Source: Escherichia phage ECO07P1. From it: 64,000 nt of DNA. The stretch lies in the sequence record OP172784, one strand, 5' to 3'. Positions 36,832 to 48,497 of this stretch are shown piece by piece. Positions within the stretch are counted from its first letter, which is position 1, and the number at the start of each line of letters is the position of its first letter. The notes below the pieces were generated by a model, which did not search any database, had not been told where the DNA came from, and saw nothing but the letters and a program-made list of their open reading frames with translations. The position numbers and the translations under genes were made by a program.

Positions 36832-37125
36832 ATGGCCTTAAAAGCAGCGGCACTATTCGCCATGCTAGGATTAGCGTTTGTTTTATCTCCGCCGATTGAA
36901 GCGAATGTCGATCCTCATTTTGATAAATTTATGGAATCTGGTATTAGACATGTTTATACGCTTTTTGAAAATAAAAGCGTAGAATCATCTAAACAGTTCT
37001 ATAGTTTCATGCGAACGACCTATAAAAATGACCCGTGTTCTTCTGATTTTGAATGTATAGAACGAGGCGCGGAGATGGCACAATCATACGCTAGAATTAT
37101 GAACATTAAATTGGAGACTGAATGA
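36832..37125 (+). CDS. rI: lysis inhibition regulator rI (periplasmic antiholin)
   Basis: 97 aa; MALKAAALFAMLGLAFVLSPPIEANVDPHFDKF matches remembered T4 RI. Confidence 0.9.
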   Translation: MALKAAALFAMLGLAFVLSPPIEANVDPHFDKFMESGIRHVYTLFENKSVESSKQFYSFMRTTYKNDPCSSDFECIERGAEMAQSYARIMNIKLETE

Positions 37126-37508
37126 AATTCAGCGACTTTTCACAAAGTGGAAAACCTTCAAAGGCAGATGAATACTTAGGTTTATTAATGGCTGCGCAAG
37201 CTTATTTTCATTCTGCGCATTTTGAAACTAAAAGTTATGCTAGACACAAAGCATACGATTTTATTTTTTCCGAGTTGCCAGATTTGATTGATAAATTTGG
37301 TGAGCAATATTTGGGGTATTCTGGTAGAAAATACACACCTTCAATTCCAGATGCTAGTAAACTTCCTACCGACACAATTAAAATGATTGATCGTATACTA
37401 GACCAATCTAACAGCATTTACAAAGAAATGCCTCCAGCCATTCAAAGCACGATAGATGATATTACTGGAATGTTTTATCAAAGTAAGTATCTTCTTTCCC
37501 TCGAATAA
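37122..37508 (+). CDS. rI.1: hypothetical protein at the rI.1 position
   Basis: 128 aa; ATGA overlap with rI. Confidence 0.65.
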
Positions 37509-37512
37509 CATT

Positions 37513-37536
37513 AGTCTCCTTCGGGAGACTTTTTTC
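37513..37536 (+). terminator. rho-independent terminator
   Basis: agtctcc-ttcg-ggagact then TTTTTT. Confidence 0.65.
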
Positions 37537-37545
37537 ATTTTACCG

Positions 37546-37576
37546 GTTTACTTTCCATTTGAGCTGTGATACTATA
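37546..37576 (+). promoter_or_regulatory. early promoter
   Basis: GTTTAC, 18 bp, tGTGATACTAT; SD gaggag. Confidence 0.6.
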
Positions 37577-37603
37577 CAACCATCGGATAAAGAGGAGAAC
37601 ATC

Positions 37604-37792
37604 ATGAAAATTGAAGCACTTAATCAAGAAGGAAATATCTACGTCATCATTAATGGTGATTTTTTCGTCGACATGGATGAAGTTACCAGTGAAGAGCTTG
37701 TAGAACTTCTTAAGAAACGTTATGATATGTGTGATGAAGCTGCAACTCATATGGCGTGTGCAATGTTCTCTCTTTCATATGTGGTGGAATAA
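37604..37792 (+). CDS. hypothetical small protein
   Basis: 62 aa from [10 protein letters not shown]. Confidence 0.55.
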
Positions 37793-37995
37793 TGATTAGT
37801 ATAGAACAAGCAGATAAAATTAAAGAATTGATAGCTTTAATTCGCAAAGCAGACGAGGAACTTAGTGACTTTGCTTGGTTTTCGGCAGGCATTGCAAATA
37901 AAGGCGCTGAAGAACTTGAAGCTAAAGTTGATAATGCTGTAGAAGCTTTAGATATGTTTCTTGATGAAATTATCGATCACAATACGAGAGTTTAA
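37792..37995 (+). CDS. small helical protein, EQ-family paralog
   Basis: 67 aa, [17 protein letters not shown]; TAATG overlap. Confidence 0.5.
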   Translation: MISIEQADKIKELIALIRKADEELSDFAWFSAGIANKGAEELEAKVDNAVEALDMFLDEIIDHNTRV

Positions 37996-39612: not shown

Positions 39613-40074
39613 ATGATTATTAATGAAAGCTCTTGGCACTATAAATTATTCAAAATGTTTAATGATGAATGGAAACGACCTAAGACACTGTGCGCGTATT
39701 TTTGGTCTATTGTTATTCCTACATTTTTCGTTTCTTTTTTCGGATGTACTATACTCGCAGGTCTAACTATCATCTGCGCAGAAATTATGCAGAAATGGCT
39801 TATTTTTGGTAGTTTATGGACTCTTATTCCATCAGCATTTATACTTGCCATTTTGCTTGTTTTACTTATTATTGGTTCATTTGTTATTCCTGCACAACTG
39901 CGTGAAAAATATAAAGATTATAAATGGAAAAAGGATTATGCTTTACATGTAGAAAATATTGATAGGGCGTATAAAGGTTTACCTCCTATTCAACCCAAGA
40001 AATCTATTATCGTCGAATTTTTAAAAACGCGTAAAGCTAAAGTATGTCCTGTTATTGAATATAAGGCTGAATGA
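39613..40074 (+). CDS. membrane protein
   Basis: 153 aa; two long hydrophobic segments. Confidence 0.6.
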   Translation: MIINESSWHYKLFKMFNDEWKRPKTLCAYFWSIVIPTFFVSFFGCTILAGLTIICAEIMQKWLIFGSLWTLIPSAFILAILLVLLIIGSFVIPAQLREKYKDYKWKKDYALHVENIDRAYKGLPPIQPKKSIIVEFLKTRKAKVCPVIEYKAE

Positions 40075-41084
40075 TGAAAACTGTAGTTAAGTCTTATTTT
40101 GGTAGTCATCTTTATGGAACTTCTACTCCAGAATCTGATGTAGATTTTAAAGAAATCTTTGTTCCTCCTGCTCGCGATATTCTTATCGGAAATGTTAAAG
40201 AGCATATGAGTAAAAATACTAACAACACATCATCTAAAAACACTAAAGATGATATTGACCATGAACTATACAGTCTTAAGTATTTCTTTAAATTAGCAAC
40301 AGATGGTGAAACCGTAGCATTGGATATGCTCCACACTCCACCTGAACTGGTAGTTAAATCTGATTTGCCTGATGTATGGAAGTTTATTCAAGACAATCGT
40401 TCTCGTTTTTATACGACTAACATGAAATCCTATTTAGGATATGTCCGCAAGCAAGCTTCTAAATATGGTGTTAAGGGTTCTCGTTTGGCCGCATTACGTG
40501 ATGTATTGAAAGTAGTTAATCAAATCCCCGATCAGTGGGTTGATTACCGAGAAGATGGAACACAAGGACAACGTCGTACTAAAATTGCAGATATTAAGCA
40601 TCGTCTTCCAGAAAACGAGTTCTGCGAATGGGTATTCCATAATCATGAGAAAACGGGCCCGCAAACGTTCTATACTGTGTTGGGTCGTAAATATCAAACA
40701 ACGCTTTCTCTTATTGAGCTTAAGCAGTCTTTGAATAAACTTGATGCTGAATATGGTGAACGTGCTCGTAAAGCTGAAGCTAATGAGGGCATTGACTGGA
40801 AAGCACTGAGTCATGCTTGCCGAGGTGGACTCCAACTATTGGAAATTTACAAAACTGGTGACTTAGTCTATCCACTCCAAGACGCTCCATTTATTCTCGA
40901 CGTGAAGTTGGGTAAACATCCATTTAAAACTGTTCAAGAGTTTTTGGAAGATGTGGTCGATCAAGTAGAAGCAGCATCCATTGAAGCTTCTAAGAACGGT
41001 ATGCAGCAAAAAGTAGACATGGGTTTCTGGGATGACTTCCTTGAGAGGGTTTATCTTGAAAACCACCGAAGTTATTATAAATGA
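40071..41084 (+). CDS. Pol-beta-superfamily nucleotidyltransferase-like protein
   Basis: 337 aa; N-terminal G-S-x9-D-x-D motif (FGSHLYGTSTPESDVDF) and downstream acidic residue (ALDMLH). Confidence 0.65.
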   Translation: MMKTVVKSYFGSHLYGTSTPESDVDFKEIFVPPARDILIGNVKEHMSKNTNNTSSKNTKDDIDHELYSLKYFFKLATDGETVALDMLHTPPELVVKSDLPDVWKFIQDNRSRFYTTNMKSYLGYVRKQASKYGVKGSRLAALRDVLKVVNQIPDQWVDYREDGTQGQRRTKIADIKHRLPENEFCEWVFHNHEKTGPQTFYTVLGRKYQTTLSLIELKQSLNKLDAEYGERARKAEANEGIDWKALSHACRGGLQLLEIYKTGDLVYPLQDAPFILDVKLGKHPFKTVQEFLEDVVDQVEAASIEASKNGMQQKVDMGFWDDFLERVYLENHRSYYK

Positions 41085-41086
41085 TA

Positions 41087-41112
41087 GGGAGCCTTCGGGC
41101 TCCCTTTTTTGT
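41087..41112 (+). terminator. rho-independent terminator
   Basis: gggagcc-ttcg-ggctccc then TTTTTT. Confidence 0.65.
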
Positions 41113-41133: not shown

Positions 41134-41164
41134 GTTTACTTCTATCGCAAAGCATATTATAATA
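41134..41164 (+). promoter_or_regulatory. early promoter
   Basis: tcacaaagttGTTTAC, 18 bp, TATAAT. Confidence 0.55.
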
Positions 41165-41209: not shown

Positions 41210-41695
41210 ATGCATATTTTAATGCAATGCCTTGGCAACAAAATTAATGATTTTAATCATAAGCGTGTTAATGATTACATTAAAGACAAACTTGAGATTA
41301 AAGACATACTTTTTAGAGGACTTACAATAGAGGAAGTGCTATCTTATAAGTTTGAAGTTAATAGGAGAATCAAATTTAAAAGAATAACTTCCTTTAGCAG
41401 TGAGTCTCATATAGCTGAAACGTTTGCTGCAGAACGCTATATGACTAATATTTTAGTAGTGTTAAAAAATGCAAACGTTTTTGACTATTCGACTGCTATG
41501 ATTGACATTTTAGAAAATTTAATCGCAATTGAAGAATCTGGCCAAACTGACGATGATAAGCTTAACAAGCTTTATGATAATCTTTGCATGGTAGATTATG
41601 AAAGAGAGTTTTTACTGCCAATTAATTCTGAGTTAATAGTTAAAAACATATATTTTGATAGCAAAAAGAACATGCATATAGTAGAAATGGAATAA
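41210..41695 (+). CDS. hypothetical protein
   Basis: 161 aa; SD gaggag. Confidence 0.6.
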   Translation: MHILMQCLGNKINDFNHKRVNDYIKDKLEIKDILFRGLTIEEVLSYKFEVNRRIKFKRITSFSSESHIAETFAAERYMTNILVVLKNANVFDYSTAMIDILENLIAIEESGQTDDDKLNKLYDNLCMVDYEREFLLPINSELIVKNIYFDSKKNMHIVEME

Positions 41696-41706
41696 ATCAA
41701 CACAAA

Positions 41707-41733
41707 GGGGACCCTAGAGGTCCCCTTTTTATT
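41707..41733 (+). terminator. rho-independent terminator
   Basis: ggggacc-ctaga-ggtcccc then TTTTTATTT. Confidence 0.65.
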
Positions 41734-41823: not shown

Positions 41824-42792
41824 ATGAAAACTGTAACTATCAATAAGGGTATCTACTTCGGTAAAGAAATCTCTGGAACTTTTGAGCTCTTAGGCGAATG
41901 GTTCCCAGATAATGCTCCGGTAGATGCACAAGGAGATGGTAAAGTTTTTGTTGAAATTGACGGTAAACGTCGCGGTGTTTGGGTTTACAAATCAGATATT
42001 TCATATGATGGTGTAAAAGTTGAAGAAGTTAAAGAATCATATGAAGATATGAAAACCCGCATTAATAAAAGATTTAATGTTATGGGAATGATGACGAATG
42101 GTATTATTAATGGAAATATTCGTTCATTAATTATCTCTGGCGCAGCAGGTATTGGTAAAACGTATTCTTTAGATAAAGCTTTAAATAAAGCAAATGATAA
42201 TGGATACATTGAATATAAAAGCATTAATGGTAAAATCTCTGGTATTGGTCTTTATGAGCAGCTTTGGAATAATCGTGAAGAGAACTCTGTCCTTTTGATT
42301 GATGATGTGGATGTTTTCTCTGATATGGACATTCTTAATCTTCTAAAAGCTGCTCTGGACACTGGAGAGACCCGTAAAGTCTGCTGGAGCACTGCATCTT
42401 CTTACTTAGAAGAAAAAGGCATTGACCGTGAGTTTGAATTTAAAGGAACGATTGTTTTTATCACAAACGTTGACATTGACCGCGAATTAGACCGTGGTAC
42501 TAAACTTGCTCCACACTTACAAGCATTGGTGTCCCGCTCAGTTTATTTGGATTTGGGTGTTCACACTAATGAAGAAATTATGGTCAGGGTTGAAGATGTT
42601 ATTCTTTCAACTGACATGATGCAAAAGCGCGGTCTTTCTGATGAAGAAACTTATAAAGCATTATCATGGATGAAAGTCAATGTTAATCGTTTACGCAATG
42701 TTTCACTGCGTACTGCTCTTTATCTTGCTGACTTTATTATGACCGACAAAAACGGTTGGGAAGAAATTGCTGAGGTTACTCTTCTGAAATAA
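41824..42792 (+). CDS. AAA+/P-loop ATPase
   Basis: 322 aa; Walker A GAAGIGKT, Walker B VLLIDDVD. Confidence 0.7.
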   Translation: MKTVTINKGIYFGKEISGTFELLGEWFPDNAPVDAQGDGKVFVEIDGKRRGVWVYKSDISYDGVKVEEVKESYEDMKTRINKRFNVMGMMTNGIINGNIRSLIISGAAGIGKTYSLDKALNKANDNGYIEYKSINGKISGIGLYEQLWNNREENSVLLIDDVDVFSDMDILNLLKAALDTGETRKVCWSTASSYLEEKGIDREFEFKGTIVFITNVDIDRELDRGTKLAPHLQALVSRSVYLDLGVHTNEEIMVRVEDVILSTDMMQKRGLSDEETYKALSWMKVNVNRLRNVSLRTALYLADFIMTDKNGWEEIAEVTLLK

Positions 42793-43256: not shown

Positions 43257-43784
43257 ATGAACGCTAAAGATATTTTCAACTTGGTAAATTACAATGATGG
43301 TAAATTTAAATCTGAAGCACAAAGCAAGTTCTTTAACGACATCTCAATCGGAGGTGAAATCACTGTTGATGGAGGACAAATTTACAAATCCCGTTGGAAT
43401 TGGATCGTTATTATTGATGAGATTGGTATTGTAGAAATTTACAAGAATACGAATAAAAATCGTACATTACATTGGTCTCGTGATACTAACGAACAGTACA
43501 AAAAGGATAAAGCATCTAAATTATCTCGTGTAACTCAAGAAGATATTGAGTTTATCAAGAAAGATATTTTAATGTATGATAACTTAATTGCTGAAGAACA
43601 AGCTGTTATTGATAAATTTGATGAGATTAAAGCTTCTCGTGAAATTCCTGATTTTATGAAAGAATCAGTAAATGAACGATACTCTCTCATTTCAGAGCGT
43701 ATTGAAACTTACAAAAAGCAAAGAGCTGAACGCCAAAATACTCTTCGGAAGTTTGAAGAACGGTTAAAGACGGTACTCGCATAA
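43257..43784 (+). CDS. hypothetical protein
   Basis: 175 aa; charged helical C-terminus. Confidence 0.6.
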   Translation: MNAKDIFNLVNYNDGKFKSEAQSKFFNDISIGGEITVDGGQIYKSRWNWIVIIDEIGIVEIYKNTNKNRTLHWSRDTNEQYKKDKASKLSRVTQEDIEFIKKDILMYDNLIAEEQAVIDKFDEIKASREIPDFMKESVNERYSLISERIETYKKQRAERQNTLRKFEERLKTVLA

Positions 43785-44254: not shown

Positions 44255-45145
44255 ATGTCAGTGGTAATTAATAATGTCAATGCAGTAATTAAATCTTTAG
44301 TTAATAAAAAAATGATGAATGAATGGACTGTATTTCGTCGTGGAGAGCCAGATAAATTTTTTCATAGATTTAACCCAACTTTGGATTTGAATGTTATCGA
44401 CAAAGATGTTCATGCAGAAATTTTAGATAAGTTTAAAGTTGATATTGGATTTGGATTAGAAAAACATTTACAGCGAACAAGCGGATCTGGAATGAGTTTA
44501 TCTAATCGCATTATGAAAGCCCTTAATAAAATTGGAGCATTGTCTCGTATTAATGCGAGTGAAATTCTTCGTAATTATAATAAAGGATATGACCTTTATG
44601 GTCGACTAATGCCGAAATTATCATTCGATCAAATGATTGCGGATTTGTGGGAAAATCAACGACGATTATTAGCATTAGGCGCTCGATTAGCTAAAGGTCT
44701 AGATAAACAAATGATTTTTAAGACCAATAATACAGAAGACCTTAAATGCTTTAAATTTAGTATTCGTGGAGATGATTATTACATCAGAGCTCACTCTACA
44801 GATTATGTCAATATGGGGCATCATCTCTGTTTAGCTTTTGAAGTTTTAAAAGAAGCTGGAACATTAGAATATTCATCTGGTGCTAAATGCCCTATTGGTT
44901 CAAGTTGTATTTTAATTTATCGCCCGGATGAATTCAGTTCAACTAAATTGCCTACAAAACCTGTACCGGTTCGTAGTAACGAAAAACATTCTGAACAAAT
45001 TGATTATTTTAATAAGCAGATTGAAGAGCTGAATATTTCTATTCAACAATATGACGATGAAATTTTCAGACTATCTGGATTGAGTAGTAAAGCTAAATCT
45101 GAGCGTGAAAAGTTAATTAAAATTGTTGATTTACTTAAATCTTAA
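44255..45145 (+). CDS. hypothetical protein with C-terminal coiled coil
   Basis: 296 aa from ATG with SD gaggaaa; last 45 aa heptad-rich. Confidence 0.6.
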   Translation: MSVVINNVNAVIKSLVNKKMMNEWTVFRRGEPDKFFHRFNPTLDLNVIDKDVHAEILDKFKVDIGFGLEKHLQRTSGSGMSLSNRIMKALNKIGALSRINASEILRNYNKGYDLYGRLMPKLSFDQMIADLWENQRRLLALGARLAKGLDKQMIFKTNNTEDLKCFKFSIRGDDYYIRAHSTDYVNMGHHLCLAFEVLKEAGTLEYSSGAKCPIGSSCILIYRPDEFSSTKLPTKPVPVRSNEKHSEQIDYFNKQIEELNISIQQYDDEIFRLSGLSSKAKSEREKLIKIVDLLKS

Positions 45146-45153
45146 GGAACACT

Positions 45154-46182
45154 ATGAAAACTCGTTCTCAAATTGAAGATATGGTTCGTAATGCCAGCTA
45201 TACTCGTGATGTTATGACATTTTTGTGTGAAAATAATTTAGACCCTGATAAAGTTAATCGTGTTATTCATCACTTTAAGTATACGAATAGCAGTGAATGG
45301 GTGCGTAATTTTAGTAAAGCAGGGTATATTACACAAATGACGGCTCGTGAGCAGCTCACCGATTTCTGTAAAACTATTGATTATAAAAATCCTCTATTTG
45401 TTCAAGGCGTTGGTCAAAGTAAGGTCGATTTATCATCTGGATTTTTTAATCCAAATCATTATCGTATTGAATGGAGATTTATTGCTCTGTTCCGTAAACA
45501 ATTAAAGCAAATTTTGTCTACTGCTAGTCGATTAAAAGGCTCTGATATTAACTTAAAGAACCTGAAATTTGATGGTTATACTCTTCAGATGGAAGTAAGA
45601 CCATTAAAAGAAAATAATAGAACTGCACGAATTAGCTTTAAACCTAATACAAAAAATTCTCTTTCAATTTGCGAATGCCTTAAATCACAGTTAACAGAAG
45701 CATTTAAGTATATGGATGTTGTTGCCGCTGTTCAGTCTAAGATTTTACCTCGTTTTGAGCGAAATTGGGAACATACAACAACGTATGAACTTGATATGAT
45801 CGTTTCATTTAAATACGATTTTTTGAGAAAGGACGAAGTCACGCAAGAGAAAAAGCAGGAAGTGCAAGATAACTTAAATTTAAATTTATCCAATTACTCA
45901 TCAAACGATCCTAAATTTTGGATGTATAGTTCAGGTAATAAGGATGCATGGAAATTCAATAAAGTGAATTTTCTTCCTGATGAAAATCCGAGTCTTAAAC
46001 CTGTTGAAAAATGGCATGCTGATGCGATTGAGAAGTCTCTTAAGGCAGTAGATGATGAACTCGTTAAAGCAACTAATGAAGTGTTAGAAGCTGAAAAGAT
46101 GCTAGAAAAAGCTCAAGAAAAAGTCAAAAATCTTACGAAGCAACGTTCTAAACTGAACAATGCACTAAATGCACTAAACTAG
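45154..46182 (+). CDS. hypothetical protein with C-terminal coiled coil
   Basis: 342 aa; C-terminus LEAEKMLEKAQEKVKNLTKQRSKLNNALN. Confidence 0.6.
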   Translation: MKTRSQIEDMVRNASYTRDVMTFLCENNLDPDKVNRVIHHFKYTNSSEWVRNFSKAGYITQMTAREQLTDFCKTIDYKNPLFVQGVGQSKVDLSSGFFNPNHYRIEWRFIALFRKQLKQILSTASRLKGSDINLKNLKFDGYTLQMEVRPLKENNRTARISFKPNTKNSLSICECLKSQLTEAFKYMDVVAAVQSKILPRFERNWEHTTTYELDMIVSFKYDFLRKDEVTQEKKQEVQDNLNLNLSNYSSNDPKFWMYSSGNKDAWKFNKVNFLPDENPSLKPVEKWHADAIEKSLKAVDDELVKATNEVLEAEKMLEKAQEKVKNLTKQRSKLNNALNALN

Positions 46183-46212
46183 TTTACTTTGCCACAAGGA
46201 TGTGGTATAATG
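46182..46212 (+). promoter_or_regulatory. early promoter
   Basis: GTTTAC overlapping upstream stop, 18 bp, tGGTATAAT; SD gaggag. Confidence 0.6.
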
Positions 46213-46239
46213 TTCTTACTTTCTACTGAGGAGATTAAT

Positions 46240-47166
46240 ATGACTCGTAAACATTATATTGATTATTTTGATAGTCTTATTACTAAACATCGTAATTATC
46301 AGATAGGACACAGAGCAGTAATCAATAATATTCTTCGTGATTTTTTAGACTATATTGGGTGGGAAAACCATATTTGTAAAGATACACAAAATGCATATTC
46401 ACATTCTCTTGGTTCTTTGCTAGAGTGGTTCAAACGTTCCCGATTACTATCTTCTGTGATAGCTCGTGATAACATTAAAAACTTTATGAAGCCGAGCTTT
46501 ATTAAATCTGAGACATCTATAACTGATTTGGTTGAATTTACTATTGTTAACGATGTTAAAAAGACCCGTTTGGCTGATTGGTTATCTACCATTCCTGAAA
46601 CTAAATTTGCTGATAAATTTGCTTGTCAATTCAATGACCAAGTGAATATGCTTTTTAAGCATGCTCGCAAACTATTTACCGCAGGCGATGATCGTACAAA
46701 TAAAGTTCATGTTAAAGATTGGGTTACTGCAGTATTCAAACCAACCGGTAATGGTAACGCATCATTATCAATTGATATCCAGGTTCCTTATTATTACTCA
46801 CGTAATCTCGGCACCATGACAGCTAGAGAAATTAATAAGCATAACAAAACTATTCGTTCGTTGTCTTATAAACTCTGCACGATGGTGGAGATGATGGACG
46901 TAGTGGAAATGTATGATGAAACCGAAGATAATAGTTCAATGTTATACAGTTCACGCATTTTAATTAAACTGAAGAATCCTAATACATATAAGCCAGTTGT
47001 AAAAGAACCTAAAGTAGAAAAGGTTGATAACTTGAGCGAAGAACGTGAATACCTCAAATCTCGACTAGTTGAAGTTGAAGCCCAGATTGCCGAACACACC
47101 AAATTGTTAAAAGCTCTTAATGCAAAAGCAAATGGTTTACGCAATGCTATTGAGGTATTGAAATGA
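46240..47166 (+). CDS. hypothetical protein with C-terminal coiled coil
   Basis: 308 aa from MTRKHYIDYF; C-terminus EEREYLKSRLVEVEAQIAEHTKLLKALN. Confidence 0.6.
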   Translation: MTRKHYIDYFDSLITKHRNYQIGHRAVINNILRDFLDYIGWENHICKDTQNAYSHSLGSLLEWFKRSRLLSSVIARDNIKNFMKPSFIKSETSITDLVEFTIVNDVKKTRLADWLSTIPETKFADKFACQFNDQVNMLFKHARKLFTAGDDRTNKVHVKDWVTAVFKPTGNGNASLSIDIQVPYYYSRNLGTMTAREINKHNKTIRSLSYKLCTMVEMMDVVEMYDETEDNSSMLYSSRILIKLKNPNTYKPVVKEPKVEKVDNLSEEREYLKSRLVEVEAQIAEHTKLLKALNAKANGLRNAIEVLK

Positions 47167-47480
47167 AAAAGCGTCTATTAGAAGATATTGCAGCTTCAAG
47201 TAATTCCAGTCTAATTAAAATTATTATGGCTGGTGAAGAAGACGATATGGAAATGCGTGGAAAGATTCATGGTTGCGATGATTTAGACTTTAAACCTCCA
47301 GCCTGGGATGCCATTATGGTTATGGTTGAACGCCGCGAAAGGGCTTCTAAGAATGTTCCGAACTGCCCAAAATGTGGTACTGAACAGGTTCAATTAATTC
47401 ATTGGCAGACTAGTAATCTTCGTTATAAATGTCGTCATTGCAAACACCGATTTAACCGAGAAGAAAATGACCAAGCGTAA
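47163..47480 (+). CDS. zinc-ribbon protein
   Basis: 105 aa; CPKCG...CRHCKH four-Cys ribbon. Confidence 0.6.
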
Positions 47481-47709
47481 AGAATATATGGAGATTGCTG
47501 AAAAGGCAGTCCGTGAATTAGCAATAGCGTATTATAATGAACATGGTAAATTTCCTGATAGATACAGCGTGCTTAAATCTGCTTTAACTCGTTCATATAA
47601 AAATATGCTATCAGAAGTAAGTGATATTATATACAAACATAAAGAACAAACGGGCCAAAGTCTTGATTACGACGAGACTTTTAAACAAGTACTAGGAATT
47701 AAGGAATAA
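47467..47709 (+). CDS. hypothetical protein
   Basis: 80-aa ORF. Confidence 0.5.
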
Positions 47710-47974: not shown

Positions 47975-48186
47975 TGCTTGAAGGAACTGATTATATCCAT
48001 GACTACCGCGGAAGCGCGGTATATGTGGGTGATGAGGTTGCAGTTTATTATGGATATGGAACTTTGATGACAGCAAAGGTTATTCAAATTAAAAATGGCC
48101 GCGCTAAACTCGAAGTTTATTATTCTAATGGTGAAAAGTCTATTTCTAAATGGAAATATGGCGATTGCATGGTCAAACTGGGGTAA
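47971..48186 (+). CDS. hypothetical protein
   Basis: 71-aa ORF; ATGA overlap with nrdC. Confidence 0.5.
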   Translation: MMLEGTDYIHDYRGSAVYVGDEVAVYYGYGTLMTAKVIQIKNGRAKLEVYYSNGEKSISKWKYGDCMVKLG

Positions 48187-48188
48187 AT

Positions 48189-48497
48189 ATGATTTACGAT
48201 GTTGATGCAGTTCTGAGTGAAATCATCGAAGACCATGATGCATTTTCAGAAAACTATGATTTCGATTTTTCGGATTATCTTAAACCTATCGAAATAGAAG
48301 ACTGGGTACAAGATGGCAAATGCCAATATCGGCAGTGTGTTTATTTTAGTCCAAAACATAACGTTCATGTGTCTGTAAATGAATCTCGCTCAGGTTCTTA
48401 CCATTCTGACTGGTATTATGCAGTTCCGACTGTTGAACTAGTTGAGCCCCGTGAACGTGTAGTAACTCAGACAATACGAGAATGGATTACGCTATAA
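48189..48497 (+). CDS. hypothetical protein
   Basis: 102 aa from MIYDVDAV. Confidence 0.5.
   Translation: MIYDVDAVLSEIIEDHDAFSENYDFDFSDYLKPIEIEDWVQDGKCQYRQCVYFSPKHNVHVSVNESRSGSYHSDWYYAVPTVELVEPRERVVTQTIREWITL

Follow-up and report, generated by a model that had tools for sequence, protein, structure and literature searches.

It has been reported that the accessory gene nrdC.5 of phage T4, when supplied in trans, allows a deletion mutant to plate again on hosts equipped with Dsr1, a SIR2-domain defence (Srikant et al. 2022, eLife, PMC9391042). The genes nrdC.1-6 can be deleted in T4 (PMC9825161), and roles against host immunity have also been published for other genes of T4-type phages, namely gp49.2 as anti-OLD (PMC13096335), nrdC.1 as anti-Septu and bas37_0203 of phage Bas37 as anti-Druantia III (both bioRxiv 10.1101/2025.11.20.689424). 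Most genes of the T4 nrdC-mobD region nevertheless lack an assigned function, though T4 is the reference lytic phage, and T4 NrdC.6, NrdC.4 and NrdC.3 are recorded as hypothetical proteins (PF26899, PF26897; phrog_2257, phrog_1435). In this work, three consecutive genes of this kind, nrdC.6, nrdC.5 and nrdC.3, were analysed in Escherichia phage ECO07P1 (OP172784), within a window (the whole stretch of DNA that was analysed) of 64,000 nucleotides (nt) with about 35% GC. A further described system of interest is DSAD1, a protein of SPbeta-group phages which neutralises the SIR2-domain NADase defence DSR2 by binding. DSAD1 comes from a different phage group and acts on a different target, and it was used only as a working analogy for NrdC.5, with no homology claimed.

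By megablast, the window shared 80-97% nucleotide identity with 665 records of T4-like phages, which identifies its source by sequence as a T4-like (Tequatrovirus) phage. An earlier reading made from the letters alone (referred to as the sequence-only reading) had pointed out three open reading frames (ORFs) on the plus strand starting at 44255, 45154 and 46240, and all three, together with the peptides quoted for them, were found in place; their coordinates are given here with the stop codon. These ORFs were assigned by homology to the T4 accessory genes nrdC.6, nrdC.5 and nrdC.3, and the annotated relative vB_Eco_NR1 (NR1) has NrdC.6, NrdC.5 and NrdC.3 at the same positions. The nrdC.6 ortholog (44255..45145, + strand, 296 amino acids (aa)) starts at an ATG preceded by a GAGG ribosome-binding site, matches phrog_2257 over residues 1-296 (E 1.6e-151), is 97.3% identical to NrdC.6 of T4 GT7 and is syntenic with the annotated NrdC.6 of NR1; PF26899 is the precomputed label on 105 of 105 NrdC.6 homologs. 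The nrdC.5 ortholog (45154..46182, + strand, 342 aa) has nrdC.6 on one side and nrdC.4/3 on the other, an arrangement also seen in NR1 and Bas37. It matches the Pfam family DUF7235 (PF23882) over its full length (427 bits, cutoff 30; residues 1-342 aligned to model positions 1-307) as well as phrog_2351 (E 1e-170), and its identity to NrdC.5 of T4 GT7 is 94.6% over residues 1-333. The window allele varies slightly in the linker and the last residues, while the Dsr1 phenotype belongs to the T4 allele. The nrdC.3 ortholog (46240..47166, + strand, 308 aa; phrog_1435, E 8e-113) is a mosaic allele located directly upstream of nrdC.2, whose start overlaps the nrdC.3 stop. Two NrdC.3 alleles exist, of which T4 carries the one not in the window; the window protein is 62% identical to NrdC.3 of T4 GT7 and 88-93% identical to the other allele group. 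PF26897 is the precomputed label on nearly all NrdC.3 homologs, the exception being a suspected chimera (P0091, see below).

In NR1, T4, Bas37 and most Tequatrovirus loci, four consecutive genes for proteins of about 300 aa were found, nrdC.6, nrdC.5, nrdC.4 and nrdC.3. The statement of the sequence-only reading that there are three consecutive proteins thus holds for the window, which has orthologs of NrdC.6 and NrdC.3 on either side of NrdC.5, but not for the T4-type relatives, from whose arrangement the window has lost nrdC.4.

The main result concerns the relationship among these proteins. The sequence-only reading had described their N-terminal domains as unrelated, and pairwise BLASTP among the three window proteins indeed gave no match. 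However, NrdC.4 matched window NrdC.3 by BLASTP (E 3e-5), PHROGs places both NrdC.3 and NrdC.4 in phrog_1435, and phrog_26858 received weak matches from both NrdC.4 and NrdC.5-like proteins. When narrow family alignments were compared by hhalign, only weak colinear matches were obtained. The alignments were widened with divergent members from Mosigvirus-like, Gaprivervirus and Dhakavirus loci, and a signal emerged only then. NrdC.4 was aligned to NrdC.3 over 210 columns (E 2.7e-12, probability 97.6%), NrdC.5 to NrdC.3 over 243 colinear columns (E 8.3e-5), from 36-342 against 50-308 and so to the C-terminus, NrdC.5 to NrdC.4 over 130 columns (E 3.3e-4), and NrdC.6 to NrdC.5 over 59 columns (E 6e-3). 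As a null, alignment columns were shuffled in blocks of seven; these nulls had means of 15.5-17 with standard deviations of 2-3, and the observed scores of 40, 36 and 28 were reached by none of 40 shuffles. For NrdC.6 against a merged NrdC.3/4/5 profile, the score was 46.3 (E 1e-5, probability 82%), compared with a null of 15.8 ± 2.1 and no shuffle out of 60 reaching it. When all window ORFs were screened against the family profiles, the top non-self matches were other members of the family. The family profiles therefore align colinearly, well above the shuffle controls, though BLASTP is silent, and the notion of unrelated N-terminal domains had to be given up. On this profile evidence, NrdC.3, NrdC.4, NrdC.5 and NrdC.6 are diverged tandem paralogs of one protein of about 300 residues, and the family arose by tandem duplication and divergence without domain shuffling. 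The link among all four genes is unrecorded in Pfam or PHROGs as consulted in this work, the latter joining only NrdC.3 with NrdC.4.

The conserved part of the bodies is a helical core of about 70-90 residues with the motifs ..F.+.+.LS...AR[DE]..+[ND]F.K and F..F..Q...+L..A.+L..G(D). In NrdC.6 it corresponds to 44495..44704 (+ strand, aa 81-150; MKALNKIGALSRINASEILRNYNKG ... NQRRLLALGARLAKGLD) and is the segment common to NrdC.3/4/5. In NrdC.5 the core matched by hhalign to NrdC.3 and NrdC.4 is found at 45301..45543 (+ strand, aa 50-130; VRNFSKAGYITQMTAREQLTDFCKT ... FRKQLKQILSTASRLKGSD), and in NrdC.3 the one matched to NrdC.4 and NrdC.5 lies at 46405..46695 (+ strand, aa 56-152; LEWFKRSRLLSSVIARDNIKNFMKP ... 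FNDQVNMLFKHARKLFTAGDD). The corresponding sequence of NrdC.4 is KKTFKESRLLSYLVNRDILGNFGKE ... FRLFKKQILKSASKLCYGD. The proteins have a common predicted layout: a fast-evolving N-terminal helical segment precedes the helical core, after which come a putative ββαββ module and a disordered linker that leads into the heptad tail; the linker is rich in Pro, Glu and Lys and variable in length, and the terminal helix has 45-56 residues.

A structure model of NrdC.6 was obtained with AlphaFold2 (AF2) from a 58-sequence alignment, with a predicted local distance difference test score (pLDDT) of 78.7. In this model the body consists of helices in 3-151, strands at 166-171 and 174-179, a helix at 187-200 and strands at 205-211 and 217-222, so that a ββαββ module would be formed by 166-222, followed by a disordered stretch at 227-243. 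In the NrdC.5 model the elements follow one another, at low confidence, in the same order, with a linker of about 65 residues and a better-predicted terminal helix of 55 residues. No specific PDB fold match was found for the NrdC.6 model, no PDB relatives were found by sequence with three family profiles, and no Pfam domain recognisable as enzymatic or otherwise known was found in the three proteins. Most of the residues that NrdC.5 and NrdC.3 share invariantly are hydrophobic, and no catalytic motif or conserved polar constellation was found in the family. A Foldseek search of BFVD with the NrdC.6 model returned NrdC.6 relatives and proteins of about 300 aa from T4-like phages of Acinetobacter, Pectobacterium and Enterobacter. 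The latter, which include Acj9 p122 (E5EPQ6) and proteins of Acj61 (E5E4A2), PM2 and IME523, are full-length structural neighbours of the model (E 2e-7 to 3e-4, template modelling score 0.41-0.47) but share only 10-16% sequence identity with NrdC.6. Acj9 p122 (325 aa, 36836-37813 on the minus strand) is located between gene 49 and nrdC.10 and has a heptad helix at its end; its profile comparison with the family was not significant. Members of the family may also occur in T4-like phages of Acinetobacter.

The heptad-rich helices at the C-termini, which the sequence-only reading had noted as a shared architecture, were borne out by register fits, shuffles and AF2 helices. The tails are located at 44984..45142 in NrdC.6 (+ strand, aa 244-296, predicted as helix-break-helix), 46012..46179 in NrdC.5 (+ strand, aa 287-342, a single helix of eight heptads) and 47026..47163 in NrdC.3 (+ strand, aa 263-308). 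Each tail is free of Pro and is fitted by a single uninterrupted heptad register, and so is that of NR1 NrdC.4. In the eight heptads of NrdC.5 (287-342), 94% of the a/d positions are hydrophobic against 20% elsewhere; the values are 83% against 29% for NrdC.3 (266-308), and for NrdC.6, where an SGL break separates 246-274 from 278-296, they are 100% and 80% against 14% and 21%. The tails thus span 4-8 heptads, where at least four contiguous heptads with hydrophobic a/d positions and without Pro were taken to define a coiled coil. A home-made heptad score, ranked over the 76 window ORFs of at least 100 aa, placed the NrdC.5 tail first, NrdC.3 third and NrdC.6 eighth, and all three were in the top 1% of 28-residue windows. 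When the last 50 residues were shuffled with their composition kept, the observed score was reached in 0 of 500 trials for NrdC.5, 8 of 500 for NrdC.3 and 10 of 500 for NrdC.6. The AF2 helices cover 242-272 and 278-295 in NrdC.6 (pLDDT about 73-91 per 10-residue block) and 287-341 in NrdC.5 (pLDDT 68-88), and the NrdC.5 tail also gave marginal matches to the Pfam coiled-coil families DUF4164 (E 0.009) and CENP-F_leu_zip (E 0.014).

The heptads end at the same position in NrdC.5, NrdC.4 and NrdC.3 and one position later in NrdC.6, owing to one extra terminal residue. A terminal pattern, L-x-x-A/I-hydrophobic-x-hydrophobic-hydrophobic-K/N (also written L-x-x-A-[LI]-x-x-L-[KN]), is common to all four. 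With respect to conservation, no other segment surpasses the tail in three of the four families; in NrdC.3, the mosaic N-terminus alone does so. For example, NrdC.6 and divergent members of its family share 62% identity in the tail and 18% in the N-terminal 80 residues, and NrdC.3 and its divergent allele share 78% in the tail and 48% in the central module. The fastest divergence was found in the N-terminal 50-80 residues and the central module. A conserved role of the tail, such as oligomerisation, is plausible.

The loss of nrdC.4, which is absent between nrdC.5 and nrdC.3 in the window, left a scar. In a three-way DNA alignment, the window tracks the end of NR1 nrdC.5, then the promoter and ribosome-binding site of nrdC.4 and ATGACTCGTAA, and then nrdC.3. 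The scar itself (46240..46250, + strand, ATGACTCGTAA) consists of an nrdC.4-type start followed by nrdC.3 sequence; the window matches the upstream region and start of NR1 nrdC.4 as far as ACTCGTAA and NR1 nrdC.3 thereafter. Since the switch from nrdC.4 to nrdC.3 occurs at ACTCGTAA, an 8-nt sequence common to the 5' ends of both genes, nrdC.4 was lost by recombination at this match. As a result, the promoter, ribosome-binding site and first codons of the window nrdC.3 are all derived from nrdC.4. An early-promoter-like site at 46183..46211 (+ strand; TTTACT, 17 nt, TATAAT, with TG), which encloses a 7-bp stem-loop, was detected in a promoter and hairpin scan. It is nearly identical to the NR1 nrdC.5-nrdC.4 intergenic region, and by this similarity it is identified as the former nrdC.4 promoter.

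Similar rearrangements between adjacent genes are frequent across the phages that carry them. By tblastn over 50,697 phage records, NrdC.6 was found in 741, NrdC.3 in 653, NrdC.5 in 581 and NrdC.4 in 554, all of them enterobacterial T4-like phages. A profile search of 1.84 billion representative proteins gave 17 matches, all of them NrdC.5-like proteins, NrdC.3 proteins or fragments, and no new bridging families among these proteins. The nucleotide identity of the window nrdC.3 to the other allele (locus L009) is 95-98% up to about 46450, drops abruptly to about 60% and returns to 82-87% at the end of the tail, a mosaic pattern that points to recombination breakpoints inside the gene. In Salmonella phage Manna, nrdC.6, nrdC.5 and nrdC.4 are replaced by one gene, Manna_094 (L013, 5215-6252), which encodes a 345-aa in-frame hybrid, NrdC.6(1-270)::NrdC.4(251-333), with the NrdC.6 body joined to the linker and tail of NrdC.4 at a common QQxxDEI. 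A second hybrid, NrdC.5::NrdC.3 (P0056), has its junction at FNxxVN. These natural hybrids are deletion products at short matches between adjacent paralogs. Furthermore, NrdC.6 of Shigella phage Sf25 (P0092, 378 aa) contains an internal tandem duplication of 177-259, a segment that runs from the central module through the linker into the beginning of the tail; phage ACG-C40 lacks nrdC.5 to nrdC.3, and phage Pinarejo has lost nrdC.6 except for the tail. The locus thus exemplifies how an accessory family changes, by tandem duplication, fast divergence of the bodies, mosaic alleles, and losses and fusions at short common stretches. Tails of NrdC.3 or NrdC.5 on foreign N-termini (an alpha/beta-hydrolase fragment, an unknown protein and a membrane-anchored protein) were also seen in three proteins from short metagenome contigs (P0091, P0202 and P0207). 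They were rejected as domain swaps and are probably assembly chimeras; the P0202 contig, the only one examined, is 803 nt long, its GC fraction drops at the junction from 0.42 to 0.34, and no phage match was found for its N-terminal part.

As for function, the sequence-only reading had considered that each protein might turn out to be a well-conserved single-copy T4 gene with a known unrelated function. The genes are conserved single-copy T4 genes, but a function has been published for nrdC.5 only among the three in the window. Since nrdC.5 disarms a bacterial immune protein, nrdC.6 and nrdC.3 are good candidates for a similar job, and we consider it reasonably probable that the locus encodes a tandem paralog family of non-enzymatic anti-defence binders which oligomerise through the tail. 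The locus is the remnant of a four-gene array, nrdC.6-nrdC.5-nrdC.4-nrdC.3, located among the non-essential early genes of a T4-type phage. According to this proposal, the NrdC proteins would act on host immune proteins as stoichiometric, non-enzymatic inhibitors or decoys. Target specificity would be set by the variable body, the target of NrdC.5 being the SIR2-domain NADase Dsr1, and the conserved tail would oligomerise the protein or dock on one common partner, which could provide avidity against immune sensors that are themselves oligomeric. Gene identity, paralogy, the heptad tails with their conservation and the deletion scar are results of this analysis, while an anti-defence role for NrdC.6 and NrdC.3, direct binding and oligomerisation through the tail are what we infer. 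The genes themselves are known T4 genes, and the result is a useful testable lead and not a new kind of system: as diverged copies of the anti-Dsr1 protein NrdC.5, NrdC.6, NrdC.4 and NrdC.3 may each disarm a different host immune system, and the conserved coiled-coil tail offers a starting point for the mechanism.

Several observations weigh against a family of tail-linked anti-defence binders. The link of NrdC.6 to the other proteins consists of one core segment of about 70 residues plus weak tail matches, and its pairwise scores with NrdC.3 and NrdC.4 are marginally above the null. The AF2 model of NrdC.5, made from a merged NrdC.5 and NrdC.3 alignment, is poor (pLDDT 45.7), the predicted ββαββ module common to the family is backed by one good model together with sequence patterns, and representatives of NrdC.3/4/5 were not returned by Foldseek of the NrdC.6 model against BFVD. 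The NrdC.6 monomer model folds the tail as an intramolecular hairpin, and heptad periodicity by itself is no proof of a coiled coil. Moreover, paralogs of an anti-defence protein are not necessarily anti-defence, the published phenotype being that of nrdC.5 only, and a literature search on the mechanism of Dsr1 inhibition and on DUF7235 found nothing beyond Srikant et al.

Among the alternatives, the one that survives best accepts the paralogy and separates it from defence: the proteins would be early modulators of host or phage physiology (transcription, nucleotide metabolism or DNA handling), and the effect of NrdC.5 on Dsr1 would be indirect, for example through removal of the trigger or sparing of NAD+. 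It is consistent with the published nrdC.5 evidence, which is a genetic rescue phenotype and not binding, with the nucleotide-metabolism neighbours nrdC, nrdD, the NrdC.10 P-loop NTPase and the NrdC.11 nucleotidyltransferase, and with a core motif and tail conserved as well as would be expected for a fixed partner. However, phages in the laboratory can do without the genes, and natural phages have often lost them or carry truncated or mosaic versions; their distribution is limited to a narrow group of phages, the array is surrounded by several anti-defence genes with experimental support, and no metabolic or nucleic-acid-binding domain was detected. Such a physiological role was judged rather unlikely.

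The proposal of anti-defence binders can also be extended to a diversifying counter-defence toolkit, in which each body would neutralise a different immune sensor, Dsr1 being the first identified, register-matched tails would let the co-expressed paralogs form homo- or hetero-oligomers or dock on a common partner, and frequent unequal recombination between adjacent genes, as in the Manna hybrid, would reshuffle bodies and tails and so make new specificities. In this full form the idea is speculative, and we regard it as improbable.

It was also considered that the similarity of the tails could be convergent or compositional, with tails neither homologous nor functionally equivalent. Amphipathic helices rich in Lys, Glu and Leu occur commonly in phage genomes with a high AT content, and coiled-coil segments yield spurious similarity; the adjacent NrdC.8 has a heptad-rich tail yet is unrelated, and tail-only matches are weak, that of NrdC.6 to NrdC.3 (E 0.019) having a score reached by 1 of 40 shuffles. 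However, a colinear alignment over the whole length puts the tails at matching positions, and the terminal register shared by NrdC.5, NrdC.4 and NrdC.3, the terminal pattern of all four proteins and the strong conservation of the tail described above all speak against convergence. Given homologous bodies, it is simpler to assume that the tails, too, share a common ancestry, and independent origins are quite improbable.

Finally, the modular family of swappable, unrelated N-terminal effector domains shuffled onto a common oligomerisation tail, as suggested by the sequence-only reading, is largely refuted and retains very little probability: the silence of BLASTP, the separate families in Pfam and the in-frame NrdC.6 body on an NrdC.4 tail in Manna_094 would fit it, but the colinear profile matches cross the bodies and not just the tails, the bodies being diverged homologs with a core of about 70 residues, the order of secondary-structure elements is alike (NrdC.6 against the low-confidence NrdC.5 model), no effector-type domain was found by Pfam or fold searches, the hybrids are deletions between adjacent paralogs at QQxxDEI, FNxxVN and ACTCGTAA, and short contigs are the source of the proteins with foreign N-termini, the one contig examined looking chimeric.

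The three genes have further neighbours of interest. Upstream, an nrdC.8 ortholog was found at 43257..43784 (+ strand, 175 aa), which matches the Bas37 gene at the position of bas37_0203 (phmmer, E 7e-113); bas37_0203 is identified by this match as the NrdC.8 ortholog. NrdC.8 was examined as a short member of the family and rejected, as it has a heptad-rich tail but no profile similarity to NrdC.3-6. Just downstream of the three genes, orthologs of gp49.2 and NrdC.1 are located at 48150-48497 and 47467-47709. Gp49.2, NrdC.1 and NrdC.8 resemble the NrdC.3-6 proteins in belonging to the same non-essential early region, being small and lacking known domains, but they are only 80-175 aa long and have no sequence relationship to them. 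Judged by these orthologs, a series of counter-defence genes stretches from nrdC.8 to 49.2 in the window.

Just upstream of the array lies the pair NrdC.11 and NrdC.10 (window 40071-41084 and 41824-42792). NrdC.11 has a Pfam match to the RlaP nucleotidyltransferase family (E 7e-11), and NrdC.10 gave weak P-loop/STAND NTPase matches below gathering scores. Between the two genes, a 161-aa ORF (41210-41695) was found that is absent from the NR1 arrangement. It has no Pfam match, and its homolog in ACG-C40 is annotated as 'ModB', an annotation that could not be confirmed. Terminator-like hairpins bracket this ORF and an early-promoter-like site precedes it (flanks 41086-41105, 41135-41163 and 41704-41728), and from its sequence context it looks like an inserted cassette.

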